Positions 1 through 26,531 of a stretch of 64,000 nucleotides of DNA are shown in pieces. Each line of letters begins with the position of its first letter. Positions within the stretch are counted from its first letter, which is position 1. The notes under the pieces were generated by a model that was given only the letters and a program-made list of their open reading frames with translations, ran no database searches and was not told where the DNA came from. The position numbers and the translations under genes were made by a program. Origin of the DNA: Bacilli bacterium (GTDB taxonomy: Bacteria; Bacillota_I; Bacilli_A; RFN20; CAG-288); assembly GCA_022647725.1 (NCBI GenBank), contig JALCLG010000001.1:1069535-1133534 (forward strand), in the 5' to 3' direction.

Positions 1-572
1 TCGCCTTTGCCCGGCTGGAATTCAAAGGCAAGAACTTCATCTTCACGCTCTTCTTAGCCACGATGATGATTCCGGGCGAGATGATGGTCGTCACCAACTA
101 CGTCTCCGTCTCCAACCTCGGCTGGACCAACGGCACCCGCAGCGGCGCCTACCTGGCCATGATCATTCCGTTCATGGTCTCCGTCTTCTACATCTACCTG
201 TTGCGGCAGAATTTCCTGCAGATCCCCAATGAACTCTATCTGGCCGCCAAGGTCGATGGCAAGTCCGACTGGCAGTACCTCTGGAAAGTCATGGTCCCCT
301 TAGCAATGCCTTCCCTCATCACCATCTTCATCCTCAAGCTGATGGGTGCCTGGAACTCCTACATCTGGCCGAACCTCATCTCCAACGGCGACAAATCCCT
401 GATGCTGGTCTCCAACGGCTTGCGTAACTCCTTCCAGACCGGTACGAACTTCGACGAATACGGCCGGCAGATGGCCGCGACGGTGTTAGTGACTCTCCCG
501 CTGCTCTTAGTCTTCATTCTGTTCAGGAAGTATATCATGCGCGGCGTCAGCCGTGCCGGTATAAAGGGTTAA
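1..572 (+). CDS. Carbohydrate ABC transporter permease (MalG/UgpE-like); the 5' end lies outside the window
   Basis: The frame is open from position 3 (AFARLEFKGKNFIFTLFLATMMIPGEMM...). The EAA-loop region (YLAAKVDGKSDWQYLWKVMVPLAMPSL) is typical of binding-protein-dependent permeases, and the protein is polytopic and hydrophobic. Confidence 0.85.
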   Translation, partial: AFARLEFKGKNFIFTLFLATMMIPGEMMVVTNYVSVSNLGWTNGTRSGAYLAMIIPFMVSVFYIYLLRQNFLQIPNELYLAAKVDGKSDWQYLWKVMVPLAMPSLITIFILKLMGAWNSYIWPNLISNGDKSLMLVSNGLRNSFQTGTNFDEYGRQMAATVLVTLPLLLVFILFRKYIMRGVSRAGIKG

Positions 573-2115: not shown

Positions 2116-3933
2116 ATGAGGAAAACGAAGATTGTCTTATCCTTCCTTGCCTTAGCCTCTTTTACCCTCACGGGCTGCCAGAAGCCGACCTCGACGGCGA
2201 CCTCGGTCTCGACAAGTCCTGTTTCGACGTCGGCTACCCCCGTCAGCACGTCGACGATTGCCGACGAAGATGTGGTTGCTGAAACCAAGATCAAGTTAGC
2301 CGATGGCCTCTTCGATAAGATCATGGCCAACAAGTCCACGGCCAATTACGACACCAATAAACTGGATTTTCAGGACGATGGCGTCGAGCGGATGCTGACC
2401 AGTTCCGACTATGCTCCTAACAAAGACAGCGATGTCTTCGTCAACTATGTCGATGGCGATACGACCCACTTCACGACCTACAACGGCCTTTACACCGTCA
2501 AGGTCCGTTATCTGGGCGTGGATACCCCGGAATCGACGTCCGAGATTGAAGTCTGGGGCAAGTCTGCCTCCAACTTCAACAAGGGCATCCTCAAGGCAGC
2601 CAAGCATATCCTCGTTCAGTCGGCCGGCTGCGCCTTGACAGGCATTCCCACTCCGGCGGATGTCGATGGCTATCAGCGTTCGTTGGCCTATGTCTGGTAT
2701 ACGGACGTTGCTACGCCGACGGCGAATGATTTCCGCAATCTCAACCTGGAGCTGGTCTATCAGGGCTTCTCCCTGTTCAGCGGCCGTGAGAGTGAGATGG
2801 ATCCGGCTTTTTATGCGGCTTTCACCAAGGCCAACGATATTGCCAAGGGCCTGAAGCGGCATATGTTCTCCGATGAGGTCGATGCCAACTATTATTACGG
2901 CTCTCCCAAGGCTTTAGGCCTGGATAAGCTTTATGACACCACCTATTACACGACCGAGCATAAGCGCAATGTCGATGATAACGGCAAGAACTACTCCGTC
3001 TATTGTGACTATTACACCCGCTGGACGTTCGAGGGTGTGGTTTCCCGCCGGGTCGGCAATGCCTTCTACATCCAGGATACGATCGCCGGAAAGACGTACG
3101 GTCTTTATGTATTCACCTTGCGGAGCTATGCCCCAGTCAAGGTCGGCAACCGCATCAAGGTCACCGGCGTCCTTTCTTTCTATGGGGGTTCGTATGAGTT
3201 AGGCGGCATCTCTTACAATTTCTTCAACCATCAGGAAGGTGATATTGAATATGTGACCGATGCTAATGGCAATAAAGTCACTGAGACGGTCACACCGATT
3301 GACGCCACACCGGCAGAAATCGATGCCGGAAAGTATGATTGCGTCTTAGTCAATGTCGTCAAGGATACAGCCGATGCCTCGCAGAAAGAGAATGCCATCT
3401 ATTTCAATACCTATGAAAACAGCTATGGTTCCCTGCCTTATGGCGGTACCGAAGAAGTCAATGGCTACAATGATGCCCATCCGTTCTACAACACCGATAA
3501 CTCGCTGGTCCTCTTTGGCAAGTATGGTTCGGATATGACTGCCGTCACCTCCGGTGCCTCGGTCAATCCGTCCGCTCCGATGATGCGGGTCAAGGTCGCT
3601 CAGGATATCATCCTCAGCGGCGACTACACCACCAGCGACGGCACGACCTCCACGGATCAGAAGAATGCTGCCATCACTTCCTATAAGTTCTTTACCGGCG
3701 GCACTCACTATTACATCCCTGGCGATGCCGAAGCGGTCCATGCCGCCACGGCTGCCAAACCGGAACCGGTTCCCAAGACCGGTGAGACGCTGTATACCAC
3801 CGTCTTCAAGCGCAAGAAGGTGACGAAGATGGTTGGCATCGCTGCCAACTATATGTCCACCAGCGGCAAGACGATGTTCACCCTCAATGTCTGCGACATC
3901 AATGACTTCTCCGGCTTTACGGAGGTTGCCTAA
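2116..3933 (+). CDS. Secreted lipoprotein with a staphylococcal-nuclease (thermonuclease, SNase) domain plus a roughly 350-aa C-terminal extension of unknown function
   Basis: An LTGC lipobox is followed by an S/T linker. The SNase motifs are present: VDGDTTHF, VRYLGVDTPE, WGKSASNFNKGILK and GYQRSLAYVWY. Confidence 0.75.
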   Translation: MRKTKIVLSFLALASFTLTGCQKPTSTATSVSTSPVSTSATPVSTSTIADEDVVAETKIKLADGLFDKIMANKSTANYDTNKLDFQDDGVERMLTSSDYAPNKDSDVFVNYVDGDTTHFTTYNGLYTVKVRYLGVDTPESTSEIEVWGKSASNFNKGILKAAKHILVQSAGCALTGIPTPADVDGYQRSLAYVWYTDVATPTANDFRNLNLELVYQGFSLFSGRESEMDPAFYAAFTKANDIAKGLKRHMFSDEVDANYYYGSPKALGLDKLYDTTYYTTEHKRNVDDNGKNYSVYCDYYTRWTFEGVVSRRVGNAFYIQDTIAGKTYGLYVFTLRSYAPVKVGNRIKVTGVLSFYGGSYELGGISYNFFNHQEGDIEYVTDANGNKVTETVTPIDATPAEIDAGKYDCVLVNVVKDTADASQKENAIYFNTYENSYGSLPYGGTEEVNGYNDAHPFYNTDNSLVLFGKYGSDMTAVTSGASVNPSAPMMRVKVAQDIILSGDYTTSDGTTSTDQKNAAITSYKFFTGGTHYYIPGDAEAVHAATAAKPEPVPKTGETLYTTVFKRKKVTKMVGIAANYMSTSGKTMFTLNVCDINDFSGFTEVA

Positions 3934-4276: not shown

Positions 4277-5169
4277 ATGAAGAAACAGATTCTCTTAGCC
4301 GTCCTCTCCGTCCTTTCCCTCTCCCTTGTTGGCTGCAACAAGCCGACATCGACCAGCACTCCGGCCTCAGCCAGCGTTGCTCCGTCCGTCAGCGAATCCG
4401 CCTCTGTTTCCGTTCCGCAGGTCGGGGAACTGAGCTTCACTTGCAATGTCAAACCTTTGGTTGGCACAACCGGTTATTTGATTGCTTCCTATGAAGGCTC
4501 TCCACTAACAGACCAATCGTTGGTGAGCTACACGGCTGACCCCGCAACTGCCATTGCCTTATCGGGCAACCTTGTTCAGTTCAAAGAAGTCGGTAAGGTG
4601 ACCATTACAGGAAGCTATGTTCCTGAAGGATTCACAACGGCACCCTTGGTCTTGGTACTGGGCTGAAACTGACCTCAACAGTTGCTCCGGCAACTGCCAA
4701 TCCATACGTTTCCTGGACTTCCGACAATGATTCCGCCGTTTCTGTGGATAGCTTTGGCAATTGCACCGCTCTCGCCGTTGGAGAAGCTACTATTACTGCT
4801 ACCAGCAAGGCCGATGCCGCCAAATCCGGTTCGTTGAAACTGACGGTTACCGAAAGATCCGCTTTGCCATTAACTATGGTGTCAGTATCTTCACTGCCAA
4901 CGGGATGGACGTGGTTGGGTCAGAATTCTGCTGAATTCTATGGAACATCCAGCGGTGGCGGAGTCAAATGTTCGACTGTCGGAGATGGTGTCAAATCGCC
5001 TATCTTTACCGATTCCGCTGCAGTGTCCGTCAGCTTATCCATTGGTTCTCTTAATGCTAACAAGAAGACCGAAGCCGGCGGTGATCATGTCTTCACTCTC
5101 CAAGGCTTGGATTCGACTGGTGCGGATATTACTTCTGCCGTTTTCTTTTCCTTGACTATTCGCCTTTAA
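4277..5169 (+). pseudogene. Frameshifted lipoprotein with a Big_2 (bacterial Ig-like) domain
   Basis: ORF 4277..4666 has an LVGC lipobox and S/T linker and ends in ...VTITGSYVPEGFTTAPLVLVLG*. A different frame is open from 4627 and encodes a typical Big_2 segment (TLGLGTGLKLTSTVAPATANPYVSWTSDNDSAVSVDSFGNCTALAVGEATITA). The track continues that frame as ORF 4744..5169. A shift of one nucleotide between about 4627 and 4666 would join them. Confidence 0.6.
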
Positions 5170-5205
5170 AATACAATAATAATAAGGCTTGTTTGGCGCT
5201 ATCAT

Positions 5206-5296
5206 GGAGCAGTACTCAAGTGGTCCAAGAGGAGTCCCTGCTAAGGACTTAGTAGGAGTAATCCTAGCGCGAGTTCAAATCTCGCCTGCTCCGCCA
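5206..5296 (+). tRNA. tRNA-Ser (anticodon GCU), type II with a long variable arm and an encoded CCA
   Basis: The acceptor stem GGAGCAG pairs with CTGCTCC. The anticodon loop is CT-GCT-AA. There is a long variable arm, the T-arm is GCGAGTTCAAATCTCGC, and the 3' end is G-CCA. Confidence 0.85.
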
Positions 5297-5305
5297 GCAA
5301 AAAAG

Positions 5306-5335
5306 AATGCCTGAGAAATCAGGCATTTTTTGTTT
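5306..5335 (+). terminator. Rho-independent terminator after tRNA-Ser
   Basis: The stem AATGCCTGA, loop gaaa and stem TCAGGCATT are followed by a T-run. Confidence 0.6.
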
Positions 5336-5555
5336 AGTGGTGTAAAAATGGTGCGATTTATTAGATTTGTGCAAAAGATCTTATAGCCTGAGGGTGGTAC
5401 TCGCGTCTTTCGTGGGTTAGGAATACACCTGAAAAGAAATTGGTCTATCTTTTCCGAAACAATGGTTTAAGAGTACAAAACTATAAATACTATTAAAAAA
5501 TATCTCGTTAACTGCCATTTTCGAAGATATTAAGGAAACAGACGATGGGCAAATA

Positions 5556-5625
5556 GTTCGGATGAGCAGCCGACTGCTCTGCCAGCAAATAAGAATGCCT
5601 GAGAAATCAGGCCTTCTTTGTTTTT
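5556..5625 (+). repeat. Degenerate direct repeat of the tRNA-Ser 3' end (T-loop to acceptor) plus its terminator hairpin; att-like scar
   Basis: AGTTCGGAT...CTGCTCTGCCAGCAAATAAGAATGCCTGAGAAATCAGGCCTTCTTTGTTTTT aligns to CTGCTCCGCCAGCAAAAAAGAATGCCTGAGAAATCAGGCATTTTTTGTTT at 5286..5335. The match is about 90% over roughly 49 nt. Confidence 0.55.
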
Positions 5626-5885
5626 AACCCAATAGGGAAAGGACTTTTCCGAGCCTTTGTTTGGTCGGGACCTTGGTAAAAATAAAATCTTATATTATTG
5701 ACCATATGCTTATGAAAAGCAATTCTTTTCTTTCATAGGCACTTAAATTTTGGTATAATTATAAAGACCAAGTAAGACGGGGAGCAAAAACGAATTCCAG
5801 TCTAGCGCCGATTTGCTTAGGCTATTGCATTAAGCATTTTCAAGCCATTTGCTTGGTCGGGAGTCATTCCTTGGGAGGTGTTTCC

Positions 5886-6407
5886 ATGTGCCGTTATCAG
5901 ATCGGAGACAAAGCCATCGATAAAAGCGGACGCATTTTCAGTGTGGAAAGCATTCAGTCCAAGGATTTTGGCACGGGCGCATCCGATTATCTGGTAATGA
6001 AGCCCTGCTTCAGCTATGATTTCACCCCGGACTACCGCTTCTTCATCCCCAAAGACAAAGCCGATACCATTCTGCATCCGGTTCTCACCAAGGACGAAGC
6101 CCTGGCTCTCATCGACTCCTTGCCGACCCTAGAGCTTTATCCGGAACTGGGTCCCCGGGAGCGGAAGACACAGTTCCAGAACGTCATCACCTCCGGCGAA
6201 CGCAAGGATATCTGCCGGGTTATCAAGACCCTGACGGCCTATCGGGAGAAGCGGAAGAAGGAAAACAAGCCTTTCTCCGATTTCGACCATCGTTTGCTCG
6301 ACTCCTTGACGGCGATGCTGCAGAATGAAATGAGCATCGCCTTAAGCATTCCGGGCAAAGATCTCAATGCCTTCATCCACGACAGGACCGGAACCAACCT
6401 CTTCTAG
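5886..6407 (+). CDS. CarD/CdnL/TRCF-domain transcriptional regulator-like protein
   Basis: The N-terminus YQIGDKAIDKSGRIFSVESIQSKDFGTGASDYLVMKP resembles the CarD_CdnL_TRCF RNAP-interacting domain. A GGGAGGTG RBS sits 6 nt upstream of ATG 5886. The track ORF starts at an upstream TTG at 5853. Confidence 0.55.
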   Translation: MCRYQIGDKAIDKSGRIFSVESIQSKDFGTGASDYLVMKPCFSYDFTPDYRFFIPKDKADTILHPVLTKDEALALIDSLPTLELYPELGPRERKTQFQNVITSGERKDICRVIKTLTAYREKRKKENKPFSDFDHRLLDSLTAMLQNEMSIALSIPGKDLNAFIHDRTGTNLF

Positions 6408-7007: not shown

Positions 7008-8660
7008 TTAGTTTGAATAATTAATTGTTCCATCCGTACAGGCAACAGTCAAATTTTCGTTGAGCCCAGGGGTGGTAGTAGTGACGATACTCTGCCATTG
7101 GGCCATCGTGCCATTGTAATGGAATGTCTCATTCCAGCCATGGCCAGCCAGGCCACCATTGGTAAGGGTTTCTGACTTAATCGTGGAGGGAAGATAGAGG
7201 TCAGCCGGCGAATTCAGAACCGCGCCGGAATTGACACCTAAAGTGGTGATGCCTTCATTCAAGGTCAGACTCTTCAGCTTGCCCATTGTGAAAAGGGTAG
7301 GATCGAAGGTGACCAGCGAACCCGGATAGGTAACGGTTGTCAAAGACTGACAGTTAATGAAGGCCGAAGCACCAATTGACGTCAGTCCTTCGTTTAAAGT
7401 AACGGTCGTAAGACTGCGGTTATCCTTGAAAGCATTGGCTCCGATACTCTTCAGGGTGGAAGGAGTGGTAATCGATGTCAGAGAGGCGCAGCCATAGAAG
7501 GCATTGTCTTCAATCGCCGTCAGTCCTTCGCTTAAAGTAACGGTCGTAAGAATGTTGGCTCCGCTGAAGGCGTTGGCGCTGATACTCTTCAGGGTGGAAG
7601 GGGTGGTAACTGTTGCCAGAGCAGGACAATCTTTGAAGGCATTGGCTCCAATCGATTCGACGCCTTCCTGCAGGATGACACTCTTGAGGGAATTGTTTCC
7701 TTTAAAGGCACTGTCGCCGATAGTTTTGATATTGCCAGTAATGGTAATCGAAGTGATTTCCCAGGTGGTGGAAACAAAGGCGTTGGCGGCGATGGAGGAG
7801 ATTGGAACATAGGTGGTCACGCCATCTTTGGTGAAGGTGGTAAACCGCGGTGTTGTATAAGCTCCCTGCGCCTGACTGCTCAGTCCGGTGATAGTCGCTG
7901 TTCCATCGCTTTGCAGAACGGTGTCATAGGTAAAGACACTGGAACCGGCCGTGCCGGTGCTGATCATGCCAAAGGAGAAACCGACATTCTTATCCTGAGC
8001 GGTTGCCTTCAGAACATTGTAGGCAGCCTCATCAGCAGGATTCATGCCATCCTTGTAAGCAAACGTAAGATTGTATTTATAAGTATAATCCGTACTTCCC
8101 GAGGTTGAAGCAAAGGATAACGGATAAGCACTGTAACTGGTTCCTAAACCTGTCACGGAGGCTACTTCAGGGTATTCCGTGAGGCTGACGGGCGTTAAGG
8201 CGGTGGTGTTGGATCCGACAAAGACATCGACATAATTTGTCATGGCTGTCGGAAGATAGAACACACCATAAGGGATGGCTGTGGTACTAGCCGTCGGTGT
8301 CCAGGTTACGGTGAAATCATTGGCCGGAACCGTCTGATAAGTATCACTGGTAAGCCGGGATAAGGAATCCACGATGTTGATGCCTTGACCGTCGGTCGTC
8401 GGGATGCCGCTTCCGGTACCTTGTCTTGCGGCCTGATCAATAGCAAAGTAGTAAGCCGAACTGGTCCGAGTGATGGCAAAGTTGCCTAAAGTATCCGAGC
8501 CTGTTTCCTGACTGAACGTGATGTGGGAGGTGACGACATCGGTTTTGACGGTCGACTGACCAGCTTTAAAATACCAGATGGCGAAGCCGCCAGAGGCAAC
8601 GAAGACACTCGCTAGAATGATTGAAGATGCAAGCAGAGTGATTTTCAGTGATCGGTTCAT
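7008..8660 (-). CDS. Secreted or cell-surface protein with C-terminal BspA-type leucine-rich repeats (LRR_5)
   Basis: The likely start is MNRSLKITLLASSIILASVFVASGG, a signal peptide or N-terminal anchor at internal Met 8660. Repeated modules follow, of the form SLxSVxLxEGVxxIGxxAFxxCxxLxxVxxPSTLKSI, which is the BspA-like LRR pattern. The track ORF extends to 8756 from an upstream in-frame start. Confidence 0.75.
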   Translation of the reverse strand: MNRSLKITLLASSIILASVFVASGGFAIWYFKAGQSTVKTDVVTSHITFSQETGSDTLGNFAITRTSSAYYFAIDQAARQGTGSGIPTTDGQGINIVDSLSRLTSDTYQTVPANDFTVTWTPTASTTAIPYGVFYLPTAMTNYVDVFVGSNTTALTPVSLTEYPEVASVTGLGTSYSAYPLSFASTSGSTDYTYKYNLTFAYKDGMNPADEAAYNVLKATAQDKNVGFSFGMISTGTAGSSVFTYDTVLQSDGTATITGLSSQAQGAYTTPRFTTFTKDGVTTYVPISSIAANAFVSTTWEITSITITGNIKTIGDSAFKGNNSLKSVILQEGVESIGANAFKDCPALATVTTPSTLKSISANAFSGANILTTVTLSEGLTAIEDNAFYGCASLTSITTPSTLKSIGANAFKDNRSLTTVTLNEGLTSIGASAFINCQSLTTVTYPGSLVTFDPTLFTMGKLKSLTLNEGITTLGVNSGAVLNSPADLYLPSTIKSETLTNGGLAGHGWNETFHYNGTMAQWQSIVTTTTPGLNENLTVACTDGTINYSN

Positions 8661-8892
8661 TTTTCGGAGTCCCCAAAGTTTACCCCGCATCTCTATTATA
8701 CAGAACCTACAAAAAAAGTCAAAAAAGCAGGGCCTTTTTATCAAAAGTTGTGACAATTGTCCTTAAAATACATTATTTATAAAGACACCTCTTTTAAACA
8801 AATAACACGTTAGTTAAGCCTAAATATGAAAAAAAGACTTCCTTTTAAGGAAGCCTCTTTCATTCATAAGATTACCAACAGAGAACGAAACG

Positions 8893-10537
8893 TTAACTGA
8901 CCTTGCCATTAGAATCGTAGGTGAGTTTGCCATTGGAGCAGGTAACGACCAGATTCTTGATGCTCGTTGTGGAGGATGGAATAAGTTTTGTCCACTGAGC
9001 TTTGGTTCCGCCGTAAGTCAGAGTCGTGATCTTCGAGTTGCGGTTAGCAATAGCGGCTGTGCTGAGGGAAGTCAATGTCGACGGAAGAGAGACTGTCGTC
9101 AACGCAGAACTGAAGCTTAAGGACTGATCGTAGCGGAGTGTTTTGACGCCTTCGCTTAAGGTCAGAGAGGCAATGCTCTTATCGCCATCAAAGGCAGAGT
9201 AATCGAATTCGCTGATGGTTCCCGGAATGGTCAGTGCTGCTAAGGACGTGCAGCCAGCAAATGCATTCTGGCCAATACTGGTGATGCCTTCCGACAACGT
9301 TAAGGATGTCAGGCTGGTGCAACTGTTGAAGGCCTGGGTCGGAATGGAGGTAATGGTTGAAGGAATCGTGACGGAAGTCAAAGACGTGCACTTCAGGAAT
9401 GCCGCTTCGCCTAAGGTCGTCAGTCCTTCCGGCAAGGTGATGGATTTCAAGGACGTGCAGCTATCAAAAGCATGCTGGCCGAGCGACGTGACGGTGGTCG
9501 GAATATTAACGGATTCAAGGCTGGAGCATCCACCAAAAGCCCAAAGCTGAATTTCAGTCAGTCCTTCAGGGAGCTTGACGGTCTTCAGCTTCGTATCACC
9601 TTGGAAAACTGCTTCACTGATCTTCTTGATATTGCTGGTGACAACCAGATTATCAATGATATTGTTGTTGCCGCCATTGAAAGCACGGACTGCAATGCCA
9701 GTGACAGGGACAATACTGCCCTCATTATTCACAGCAAACTGAGAGGTCGTATAGTCTCCTTCTGCCTGTGTTCCTTTAAAACCAGAAATTTCGGCTGAGG
9801 AACTGGTGAAATTATAGGTATAAATACTTGCCGTGGAGATTGTTCCGAAAGCAAAGCCCATCGTCTTGTCCTGGGCGGCATTCTTAAGGATATCGTAATC
9901 CTCTTCCGTGGTCGGAAGCATACCGGTCTTGTAACTGACGGTCACATTGAAATCATAAGAATAGGTCGGAGTGGATCCTGTCGTTTTTGTAAAACTCAAC
10001 GGATAAGCCACATAACCGCTGGCAACGCCCGCGGATGAGGCAGCACTTTGATAATCTGACATCGCTGTGACAACGCTGGCGGTTGTCGAGCCGATATAAA
10101 CATCAAAATAATCCGATAAATCTTCCGGAAAATAGAACACACCATACGGCGCATCCGTCGTGGTGGAAGTCGCGGCAGTCCACGTAACCGTGAAACCTTT
10201 GGCAGCCACGGTCGGATAGTCATCCGATGTGGTAACCCCGGCTGTTCCTTCGACGAAATTGACGCCTTTGCCAGCCGTGGTCGGAATACTGGTTCCATCC
10301 GCCGGACGGGCAATCTGATCGATCGCCAGATAGTACTTATTCGTATCCGGAGTCGAGAAAGTGCCGGTCGTCGTATCCGTCGGCTTATTGAACTTGATTC
10401 CTGAGGTGATGACATCGGTCCGGACAGTCTTTTTGTCAGTAGCAAAATACCAGACGGCGAAACCGCCGGTAATGAGGAAAATCCCCCCCTAAAATTGCTG
10501 TCGTACCTATAATTGTCGCCTTAAGAGACTTTGTCAT
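8893..10537 (-). CDS. Paralogous BspA-type LRR surface protein, phase-variable and currently frameshifted (OFF); the ATG and signal peptide are out of frame with the body at a poly-G tract
   Basis: The body ORF 8893..10209 has LRR modules TSLxSVxIPxTxTSIxxxAFxxCTSLxSxTLxEG. Its frame stays open upstream to a TAG at about 10489 and encodes GGFAVWYFATDKKTVRTDVITSG, homologous to the N-terminus of gene 7008..8660. ATG 10537 has a GGAA RBS and encodes MTKSLKATIIGTTAILGG in the +1 frame, stopping after 35 codons. The two frames meet at the C-run at 10483..10489. Confidence 0.7.
10483..10489 (-). repeat. Homopolymeric G tract (C on the + strand, about 7 nt) inside the signal-peptide coding region of the LRR gene; candidate slipped-strand phase-variation switch
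   Basis: This is the only homopolymer between ATG 10537 and the in-frame body. Removing one G would restore a continuous 547-aa ORF. Confidence 0.6.
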
Positions 10538-10762
10538 TATTTCCTATGCCTCAGAAACTTTCAGGAAGCCCTATTATAGGCGACTGATTCCAGATGTCAA
10601 ATATATCCTCTATTTTTCACCAAGGGAAATTCATTATTTGTTCATTTTAAACAGCAAAAAACATAATATCGAATTTCTTTCTCACTGAAAAACCTCATAG
10701 GAGCACTTCTGGGATTCGTCTTTGTTTGTATTTGTCCTCGTTTCACGTTATCTTATTAGGGT

Positions 10763-24193: not shown

Positions 24194-24880
24194 ATGATTA
24201 AACTGGTTGTCTTTCTTGTTGTTTTTTCTATCGTTGTGGTGCTCTTGGTGGTCGGCTTCTTTTATGATGACATCAAGGCTTTTGACGAGAAAAGACGTCA
24301 CCGCCATCATGTTTATCAGGTGCTGCATAACTATGCCGAAGACTACGATCAGCTCTTATTGAACAACGTTGTCCTCAACCTCGGCCAGCCGGGCGATCCG
24401 GCCACGACGTTCGACCATATCCTCATCGGGGACAAGTACGCCTATCTGATTCAGGATTTTGAGGCCCAGGGAGCCATCTATGGCAACCTCCGGGATCCCA
24501 AGCTTTTCCTGAAGAACTTTCAGAGCACCGTCATCACCATTCCCAATCCGATGATTGAGAATCTGGAAGCCATCCTGAAATTCGAGAAATCCCGGGGCAT
24601 CGATTCCGAGGAGAAAATCTGCGTTTCCGTCATCGTCGTCAATGATTCTTTGATTGTCCCGGCCGGCATCAAGACCAAGGGTCAGGTGGGCTGGTTCTTA
24701 CCGGTCAACGAACTCTATAAGACATTGCAGCAGGCTGAGCAGGATGATGTCGCAAAGATTTCCCATGAGACCTCTGAGAAGATCATCAAGAATCTCAAGT
24801 CGCAGAGTGACGCCAACAAGGCCGAAATGAAAAAGCACTCCCGCCCTCTGAAAAGCAATCCGGACGTTCCCGTTAAGTAA
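24194..24880 (+). CDS. NERD-domain membrane protein (hypothetical)
   Basis: An N-terminal TM helix is followed by a segment TFDHILIGDKYAYLIQDFEAQGAIYGN that resembles the NERD nuclease-related domain. The gene is translationally coupled to deoD. Confidence 0.45.
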   Translation: MIKLVVFLVVFSIVVVLLVVGFFYDDIKAFDEKRRHRHHVYQVLHNYAEDYDQLLLNNVVLNLGQPGDPATTFDHILIGDKYAYLIQDFEAQGAIYGNLRDPKLFLKNFQSTVITIPNPMIENLEAILKFEKSRGIDSEEKICVSVIVVNDSLIVPAGIKTKGQVGWFLPVNELYKTLQQAEQDDVAKISHETSEKIIKNLKSQSDANKAEMKKHSRPLKSNPDVPVK

Positions 24881-25031
24881 TCGCTTTCTTATCCTTGACG
24901 ATTTCTTAAACTTCTTTTAACTATCGTGCTTTTTACAAAAAGACCTTTTCATTACCCTCAAAAAATGATTGCCTTGTGTCAAGGGATTTGTATAATTGAG
25001 GTTAGTTTTTTCAAACAGGGGGGCTCGAGCT

Positions 25032-25334: not shown

Positions 25335-26531
25335 ATGGAAAAGAAAGAGACGGAGAAAATTATCGTTGCACGGCGGAAAAGGATCCTGAACAAAGGCTTA
25401 GGCATGAACCTGCTTTTGCTTCTCCCTCCGCTGATTCTGGAGGGCGTCATTCTGATTGCCTCGCCGGTCCTTTTCTTTTTGCCTCTGTTTCTGACCTATT
25501 TTGTGCTGCCGATGTTCTATACCGTGGAACGCAGGATCCGCAACAACATCAGCGGCATCGGCAACCAGAACTTCACTTATGTCGATGGCTACAAAGCCTT
25601 CTTTGCTTCCGCTCAGGGCGGCATCTTCGGCGTCATCCTGGCTTTCTTCTCGGCCGTGATGCTGACCTTGTTCCTCTTTCTGATCTTAGGCTTTACCTTT
25701 CCTTATATCTGCACCAACTATGCCGGTGCCTATAACACCTACCAGGAACTGGTGAAGATGTATGGCGATACCTCCACGGATACGCAGACCGTCCTTAACT
25801 ATCTGCTGGCTAACGGTCCGGTGCTGATGCAGCCGATGACCATCTTCATGGGAGCCCTGCTTTTCTTGCCTTGCTTCTATCTGGTCTTCATCAGCATCAA
25901 CTTCCATCTGACTGACCATTACCTTTGCACGATCGTCTTGCCGGATATTGACCTCAATATCTCCGCCAGCCAGGCCAGAGCCTTGTCCCGGGGATCGTTC
26001 CGGAGACTGCTTTTCGGCGAACGGATTGGCTACGACATCCGTTATAATTGGCCTTTCTATCTCGGTTATGCCGTTCTCTATGGAATCTCCGTCTATCTCT
26101 TCTCCCTGGTGACGGTTTCTTCTGCCAATCTGATGGCCTTTGTTGCCTTGGCAACCCCGGTCATCTCCCTCTTCTATGGCCTTTTCTTCGATTATTTCTG
26201 CCTTAGCAATGATTATGCCATTCTGGAAGGCATTGCGCCGTTACTGTTAGAGAGAATCCCGCTGCCAATGCGGACCTCCATCCTACAGACCTACAACAAT
26301 CCCAACTATATCCATGGTCAGGAATCCGCCATCCGCGGTTCTTTCGTTCCGCAAAATTCATTCAGGGAAGAGCATCCTTTTGCTTCGCCCTTTGCTTCTA
26401 GCCCGACAGCAGCGCCGACGAGTGAAACAAAGCCGGAAGACGAGCCGACCGGAGCGGTCATTGATCTCTCCCAGTCGGCCGATGACACCAAGCCCTCTTC
26501 TGAGGATGGAAAGGATAAGGACAGCAAATGA
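25335..26531 (+). CDS. Polytopic membrane protein with an acidic, disordered C-terminus (hypothetical); first gene of the activase operon
   Basis: The protein is 398 aa with at least 8 predicted TM segments. Its stop overlaps the downstream start (ATGA at 26528). Confidence 0.5.
   Translation: MEKKETEKIIVARRKRILNKGLGMNLLLLLPPLILEGVILIASPVLFFLPLFLTYFVLPMFYTVERRIRNNISGIGNQNFTYVDGYKAFFASAQGGIFGVILAFFSAVMLTLFLFLILGFTFPYICTNYAGAYNTYQELVKMYGDTSTDTQTVLNYLLANGPVLMQPMTIFMGALLFLPCFYLVFISINFHLTDHYLCTIVLPDIDLNISASQARALSRGSFRRLLFGERIGYDIRYNWPFYLGYAVLYGISVYLFSLVTVSSANLMAFVALATPVISLFYGLFFDYFCLSNDYAILEGIAPLLLERIPLPMRTSILQTYNNPNYIHGQESAIRGSFVPQNSFREEHPFASPFASSPTAAPTSETKPEDEPTGAVIDLSQSADDTKPSSEDGKDKDSK

Follow-up and report, generated by a model that had tools for sequence, protein, structure and literature searches.

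A gene for a BspA-type leucine-rich repeat (LRR) protein, hereafter gene 1, is split by a frameshift at a run of exactly 7 G in a 64-kb stretch of the genome of an uncultured Bacilli bacterium (the window: 64,000 nt of contig JALCLG010000001.1, assembly GCA_022647725.1, numbered from its first letter). The split form is a real and common natural allele, carried by 29 of 40 contigs of the species, and its run length is perfectly linked to a single-nucleotide polymorphism (SNP) ∼130 nt away. We consider it probable that the seven-G run (G7) is a null allele generated by slippage, reversible in principle and stable at population scale, which would act at most as a slow switch of the type known from Listeria inlA.

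Gene 1 lies on the minus strand. Read directly, its sequence runs from the ATG at 10537..10535 to ATT TTA GGGGGGG ATTTTC and onward, and the following elements determine its reading frames.

10436..10537, minus strand: start codon and 33-codon remnant frame, encoding MTKSLKATIIGTTAILGG (codons 1-18) then DFPHYRRFRRLVFCY and a stop; the sole product of the ATG in the G7 state.
10483..10489, minus strand: G7 homopolymer (C7 on the plus strand) and +1 frameshift site, in Gly-Gly codons of the N-terminal hydrophobic helix.
8893..10488, minus strand: body frame, comprising the remainder of the anchor helix, a domain of 250 aa without a family match, LRR_5 repeats and a C-terminal tail.

The final two glycines of MTKSLKATIIGTTAILGG lie inside the run. 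Past it, the ATG frame continues to TGA 10438..10436, a total of 33 codons and not the 35 given in a preliminary description of this DNA. The body frame is closed upstream by TAG 10491..10489, which shares the first G of the run, and then stays open for 531 codons up to TAA 8893. As had been claimed, the ATG and hydrophobic N-terminus are out of frame with the LRR body at the G run, which we place at exactly 10483..10489, and open reading frame (ORF) analysis confirmed that ATG, GTG and TTG are absent from the body frame upstream of GTG 10209. Because this GTG is the first such codon, public annotation shows only a 438-aa protein (8893..10209), the one part of the gene that gene callers report. 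Computed deletion of one G produced a 547-aa ORF, as predicted; addition of two G, for which the same length had been predicted, gave 548 aa. Runs of five or eight G (G5, G8) led to a 179/180-aa product in the third frame. A change in length therefore switches frame, the gene being in frame at G6 and G9 and out of frame at G5, G7, G8 and G10. The sequence observation of the preliminary description was correct in all essentials.

The site was compared in a census of 40 distinct syntenic contigs of the same species, window included, drawn from many Joint Genome Institute (JGI), Logan and NCBI samples. Four forms were found.

ATT TTA G7 ATTTTC: out of frame; 29 of 40 contigs, window included.
ATT TTA G6 ATTTTC: in frame; 5 of 40 contigs (L010-L013, L081).
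ATC CTT GGGGGA ATTTCC: in frame; 4 of 40 contigs (L024-L027).
ATC CTT GGAGGA ATTTCC: in frame; 2 of 40 contigs (L001, L028).

Eleven of the 40 contigs are simply in frame at the site. Sequencing runs that yielded G7 contigs include SRR26424703, SRR26424696, SRR35947517, SRR16378533 and SRR19542532, and those that yielded G6 contigs include SRR26424702, SRR35947624, SRR35948650 and SRR35948716; JGI sets 3300053040, 3300053041 and 3300053042 are among their counterparts. The comparison of tract length in relatives, which had been proposed as a check, showed that it differs between natural populations, with G7 in 29 contigs and G6 in 5. Both states were also present among proteins, since proteins of 438 aa and of 547 aa, taken from NCBI, JGI and Logan assemblies, fall together in the 90%-identity cluster.

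It is scarcely credible that the true sequence is G6 and the additional G a homopolymer error. The length of the contig that contains the window, ∼2.08 Mb, suggests long reads, and some related JGI assemblies carry indel errors in housekeeping genes or short runs. However, G7 recurs in 29 contigs across projects and assemblers, including many Logan assemblies of Sequence Read Archive runs. G7 in 29 contigs and G6 in 5 are moreover tied to different SNPs and haplotypes on their flanks, which argues against assembly error. One-base edits at all homopolymers of at least 6 nt, a scan insensitive close to gene starts, revealed no second homopolymer-split gene in the window. We conclude that G7 in the window is a real, common natural allele and not an error of assembly.

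Short runs with a one-base insertion, or housekeeping genes broken into pieces, were observed in L019/L087 (JGI 3300051650), L085 (JGI 3300043781) and L027/L092 (JGI 3300059061); the breaks left a tandem paralog of gene 1 as 140 + 161 aa, topA in three pieces and rbgA as 196 + 93 aa. As these are apparent long-read indel errors, homopolymer lengths in those assemblies are less trustworthy; they make up a small minority of the census evidence. In GCA_000987605.1 (2015), contigs LAHS01000368.1 (L031/L095) and LAHS01000258.1 (L088) end within the 225-nt intergenic region between rbgA and gene 1, and the first ∼20 nt of LAHS01000368.1 are unlike other loci; strains that differ here might account for the break. 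A metagenome pattern scan allowing any run length returned only LAHS01000368.1, already in the set. No publication was returned for the sample or assembly accessions.

Run length was perfectly linked to the nucleotide at one upstream position.

10620: SNP 83 nt upstream of the ATG; G in the 29 G7 contigs and in 6 run-free contigs, T in the 5 G6 contigs.

T was thus present in 5/5 G6 and 0/29 G7 contigs. Lengths 6 and 7 were the only ones observed, and none of the census contigs had G5, G8 or G9. Both length classes have diversified internally with no change in length, G6 into three coding haplotypes and G7 into at least five haplotypes. The dominant haplotype, that of the window, was G7 in more than 20 samples, and its in-frame version was never found. 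Exact look-ups in a 15-billion-protein collection returned neither the G6-repaired window haplotype nor the G5, G8, G9 and G10 products nor the 33-aa leader. Since the leader and the alternative-frame ORFs may escape gene finders, only the negatives for 547/548-aa products carry weight. The 90%-identity cluster had no 546- or 548-aa members. Neither is the run conserved as a tract, since L001 and L028 read GGAGGA and L024-L027 read GGGGGA; homologues that lack a homopolymer at this position had been named in advance as favouring a simple pseudogene. These results do not bear out the view of the locus as a textbook slipped-strand ON/OFF switch: only lengths 6 and 7 occur, they are linked to a SNP, the dominant haplotype is never in frame and other alleles lack the run. 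A homopolymer at the frame junction is expected from any slippage indel, because the insertion itself lengthens the run.

Recombination at the locus was evident throughout the census. SNP blocks upstream of gene 1 are mosaic among contigs, and within G7 the alleles of SNPs 101 and 529 occur in each of the four possible combinations. L029 combines a background of the G6 class with a window-type patch (upstream SNP G, G7 and 101A); the exact window-type triplet is the mark of an imported patch and not of three separate mutations. Length change independent of background, the homoplasy expected of a contingency locus, was not observed, G7 on other backgrounds being attributable to recombination patches. 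Between a point 225 nt before the ATG and +1644, L027 departs from the window haplotype in two patches only, +45..59 and +101..181. The first (+45..+59, window 10479..10493) has five substitutions within 15 nt, ATC CTT GGG GGA ATT TCC versus ATT TTA GGG GGG ATT TTC; the further differences are one at +101 and nine within +144..+181 (window ∼10357..10394). The patches are very short and conversion-like, and one of them creates or removes the G6 run. The alleles of each LRR gene are shuffled without regard to those of the other: in L002 and L007, gene 1 is identical to that of the window and the paralog only 94% identical (121 differences in 2 kb).

Further variation was noted in both genes. In L001 the 5′ end of gene 1 is divergent, yet the paralog has 3 differences. 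Another gene 1 allele (P0002, in L024-L026) is 68% identical, with the first ∼120 codons conserved, and was found in the same samples as the G7 type. In L010 (JGI 3300053040), the intact paralog at 4877..6391, corresponding to window 7008..8660, encodes 504 aa and not 550, owing to the loss, in frame, of exactly 46 residues, equal to two LRR units of 23 residues each, between two near-identical repeats; the difference is one of repeat number, produced by recombination between LRR units.

The run is exceptional in its genome. Gene 1 G7 is the only G/C run of at least 7 nt in the 64-kb window, where shuffles expect 10.3 ± 4.1, a deficit which indicates that G-runs are strongly avoided. G6 gave 3 matches (two loci) versus 39.5 ± 8.3 expected. 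GGG is the rarest Gly codon (6-7%), and GGGGGG is used in 0/86 of the other Gly-Gly pairs of the window. The sole other G/C run of at least 6 nt is a G6 on the plus strand at 25018..25023, between ORFs that end at 24880 and start at 25335; a T6 run adjoins it at 25006.

Gene 1 and its paralog share one architecture, and each is preceded by a promoter-like sequence.

7008..8660, minus strand: tandem paralog, intact, 550 aa; same architecture as gene 1, with the G run missing at the corresponding position.
10573..10600, minus strand: gene 1 promoter of sigma-70 type, TTGACA, 16-nt spacer, TATAAT; 12/12 consensus positions.
10542..10545, minus strand: ribosome-binding site AGGA, 4 nt before the gene 1 ATG.
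8830..8861, minus strand: hairpin with a T run after it, resembling a terminator, in the interval that separates gene 1 from the paralog.
8695..8722, minus strand: paralog promoter, TTGACT, 16-nt spacer, TATAAT; 11/12 positions.

The 40 nt preceding the gene 1 ATG are identical in all G7 and G6 loci. Repaired gene 1 and the paralog are 42% identical from residue 1 to the end, N-terminus included (E 4e-129), and both match PF13306 (LRR_5) far above the gathering cut-off of 27.7 bits (gene 1, E 1e-51, 174.6 bits; paralog, E 2e-54, 183.5 bits). The description of gene 1 as encoding a BspA-type LRR protein, predicted to lie in the membrane or at the surface, with an intact tandem paralog is supported. 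Solved structures of BspA/TpLRR type were also matched (4gt6 'cell surface protein', E 2e-56; TpLRR 6mlx, E 7e-25; PcpA 4cp6, E 2e-18), the matches being confined to residues ∼300-465, and residues ∼35-290 gave no family match. The homologues include a Candidatus (Ca.) Mycoplasma girerdii BspA-like protein (P0078). A scan of the genome collection with the repaired protein yielded no more than distantly related LRR proteins (27-42% across the repeats; Clostridia, Treponema and others) and not the species itself; comparison of gene 1 beyond the window was made with metagenome alleles only, with no further orthologues. Among intact alleles (545-547 aa), the ratio of nonsynonymous to synonymous substitution rates (dN/dS) was 0.09-0.22, indicating purifying selection over the whole length and hence that gene 1 is functional in the species.

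By inspection, the N-terminus has lysines K3 and K6 followed by ∼25 hydrophobic residues, a pattern kept in the paralog, with no lipobox, LPXTG or evident cleavage site. Of the signal-peptide-like start described previously, the hydrophobic character stands; to the eye, the segment is more like an uncleaved signal-anchor helix, and less like a signal peptide that is cleaved off.

On the reading we favour, gene 1 would encode a BspA-type LRR protein held in the membrane by its N-terminal hydrophobic helix and transcribed from its own consensus promoter. Replication slippage on a G6 run inside the two GGG glycine codons of the helix would have added a G. In G7 cells, translation from the ATG would end after 33 codons, leaving a 33-residue peptide as the only product from this promoter, and the LRR body would have neither a start codon nor an export signal of its own. 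G7, a heritable allele, would have reached the majority in the species and been carried onto several backgrounds by homologous recombination; loss of one G could restore the gene. Reversion would be rare enough for run length to stay linked to a SNP ∼130 nt away. Given the heavy recombination at the locus, one G6-to-G7 event spread in this way suffices for the pattern.

Several observations weigh against a stable null allele. The tract occupies a typical contingency position, at the 5′ end of a surface-protein gene with a tandem paralog, and G7 reaches the poly-G cut-off (≥7) applied to Campylobacter phasomes (PMC6321876), although the ON state, G6, falls below it. The coding sequences of L032 (G7) and L010 (G6) are identical except for the run. 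A strictly clonal tree puts the G6 haplotypes at a derived tip and needs two length changes or a G7-to-G6 reversion. With G-runs purged and GGG the rarest glycine codon, the G6 run of the functional allele is itself an exception. In every G7 allele the promoter is still perfect and the 531-codon body free of interruptions; this has little weight, because G7 alleles differ by at most 4 SNPs in 1.6 kb (∼0.25%), and at that divergence relaxed and maintained constraint cannot be told apart. Finally, an assembly consensus hides minority lengths within a sample, so that a slow or moderate switch would look identical.

The main rival is true phase variation, in which the run would gain or lose a G often within populations, switching the LRR protein ON and OFF while assemblies report the majority state; the benefit would be to evade phage or predators, or to avoid being recognised by host or community. 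Position and gene class fit such a switch, as do the natural occurrence of in-frame and out-of-frame lengths, the opposite states of L032 and L010 on one coding sequence, a single G7 at the PhasomeIt cut-off, and its placement over two rare GGG codons in a G-run-avoiding genome; BspA-like genes of Ca. M. girerdii phase-vary via simple repeats and are 'off' in the majority (PMC5476646). Phase variation of this kind is nevertheless doubtful, though a serious contender: length is perfectly linked to a SNP ∼130 nt away over 34 contigs, two lengths only are seen, the 15-billion-protein collection lacks the dominant haplotype in its ON form, other alleles lack the tract, the ON state exists only as G6, under the usual thresholds, and recombination accounts for the spread of G7. 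We regard as rather unlikely the proposal that the run is a genuine selected contingency tract, toggling an LRR adhesin in an uncultured, probably non-pathogenic Bacilli species, with OFF driven to the majority and spread by recombination under selection (for example if the gene 1 protein were a phage receptor); cited in its favour are the lone tolerated G7 and the clustering within 15 nt of the five substitutions between the run and the GGGGGA allele. If G7 alleles were still expressed, by a prfB-like +1 ribosomal shift or by transcriptional slippage on the run, the frameshift would be bypassed. AGGGGG is the stimulator sequence of Escherichia coli prfB (release factor 2), placed as a Shine-Dalgarno-like element a few nt upstream of a codon permitting +1 re-pairing. 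In gene 1, AGGGGGGG could act as an internal element of this kind two nucleotides before UUU_C, where tRNA-Phe can re-pair +1; the mRNA reads UUA GGG GGG GAU UUU CCU, slipping by +1 at either the second GGG or UUU_C would lead into the body frame, and every G7 allele retains both promoter and body ORF intact. The likeness to prfB is a resemblance only and bypass improbable, since the A site has no stop and no rare or slow codon (CCU is 20% of Pro codons, 8.6 per thousand; GAU is 66% of Asp codons) and the arrangement is not conserved, the G6 and run-free contigs reading simply in frame. G7 is also short for transcriptional slippage, documented mainly for A/T runs of at least 9 nt. It is very improbable that the functional product is the 438-aa ORF starting at GTG 10209, which would give an anchorless LRR protein of the cytoplasm and make the upstream part dispensable. 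Gene callers annotate this ORF and all G7 alleles keep it intact, but the 330 nt 5′ of the GTG are open in frame and homologous to the mature N-terminus of the paralog, intact alleles of 545-547 aa are under purifying selection over their whole length, and no notable promoter or ribosome-binding site precedes 10209.

In behaviour, gene 1 comes closest, among known systems, to Listeria monocytogenes inlA with its poly(A) tract at the 5′ end (Orsi et al. 2010, PMC2831843). Both genes encode LRR surface proteins of members of the Bacilli, both have a 6/7-nt homopolymer in the first codons at which a one-base change truncates the product, and in both the frameshifted alleles segregate by lineage. 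Other lineages carry a stabilised, interrupted tract, A2GA4 in inlA and GGAGGA or GGGGGA in gene 1, which in these respects shows the allele pattern of the inlA type. The rates of the inlA A6/A7 tract, ∼5.5e-7 and 3.9e-8, are ∼1000 times that of point mutation and far below those of classical contingency loci; the same paper mentions Buchnera with regard to transcriptional slippage (PMC2831843). Unlike inlA, gene 1 has poly-G and not poly-A, its intact state is the shorter length (G6), and its null allele is in the majority; the predicted protein is of BspA/TpLRR type (PF13306) and not an internalin LRR, with an N-terminal helix anchor in place of LPXTG. The rates of inlA were measured, whereas gene 1 is known from assemblies of an uncultured organism.

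The BspA-like proteins of Ca. Mycoplasma (Malacoplasma) girerdii resemble gene 1 in their BspA-type LRRs, in frameshifting repeats within the coding region, in a majority state that is often 'off', and in evidence that comes from metagenomes (PMC5476646). There, mostly dinucleotide repeats of 5-12 units occur among at least 28 paralogs, and reads reveal heterogeneity within populations at a mean variant frequency of 0.08 (PMC5476646). Gene 1, in contrast, has one short homopolymer and two paralogs, and assembly-level data link its length to the flanking haplotype. With the poly-G/C loci of Campylobacter, Neisseria and Haemophilus (PhasomeIt, PMC6321876), gene 1 has in common a poly-G tract inside the coding region, close to the 5′ end of a gene for a surface determinant. 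Unlike the gene 1 run, those contingency tracts are typically 8-13 nt, show many lengths between and within strains, are conserved across strains and number dozens per genome. The authors of PhasomeIt caution that a tract at the cut-off may have a mutation rate below 1e-5 and switch inefficiently, mutability being a continuum (PMC6321876). By its predicted family, gene 1 belongs with the BspA/TpLRR proteins; it is not a demonstrated member of the classical contingency loci, because background-independent recurrence and tract conservation were not found and the length is borderline.

Gene 1 provides a well-sampled natural ON/OFF polymorphism, of a kind that specialists would find unsurprising. 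A homopolymer situated where two frames meet is not enough to argue for phase variation, and linkage to flanking SNPs across assemblies offers a cheap test. If the locus does switch, it would add to the known cases in which a BspA-type adhesin phase-varies through simple repeats, here in an uncultured lineage of Bacilli found in many metagenomes; ON and OFF populations are already in public data, and would then form a convenient natural system to follow with metagenomic reads. Public annotation is corrected, the 438-aa 'leucine-rich repeat protein' (e.g., MCI1735044.1) being the tail of a frameshifted 547-aa gene.

The order of genes at the locus is topA, dprA, rnhB, rbgA, gene 1, paralog and a helix-turn-helix (HTH) gene. 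From 2 to 10.5 kb, the region as a whole has the look of a small island made up of variable, recombining genes for surface proteins. In other strains (e.g., L090), the counterpart of a lipoprotein gene at window 4277..5169 (plus strand) encodes a protein of 582 or 565 aa that includes a Big_2 domain. The window copy shares with them only its first ∼365 nt, and the remainder is replaced by ∼500 nt of unrelated sequence with two ORFs (129 and 141 aa) in different frames; the same arrangement was seen in L094. The called length of an SNase-domain lipoprotein at window 2116..3933 varies among strains from 508 to 606 aa. Elsewhere in the window, 854-aa and 654-aa ORFs at 57.9-62.4 kb, guessed to encode MutS and MutL, whose presence would have had a bearing on the rate of slippage, proved to encode a rhamnosidase and a major facilitator superfamily (MFS) transporter. 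The only Rfam hit of the window is a tRNA-Ser (anticodon GCT) at 5206..5296, between the variable lipoprotein region and a 184-aa ORF.

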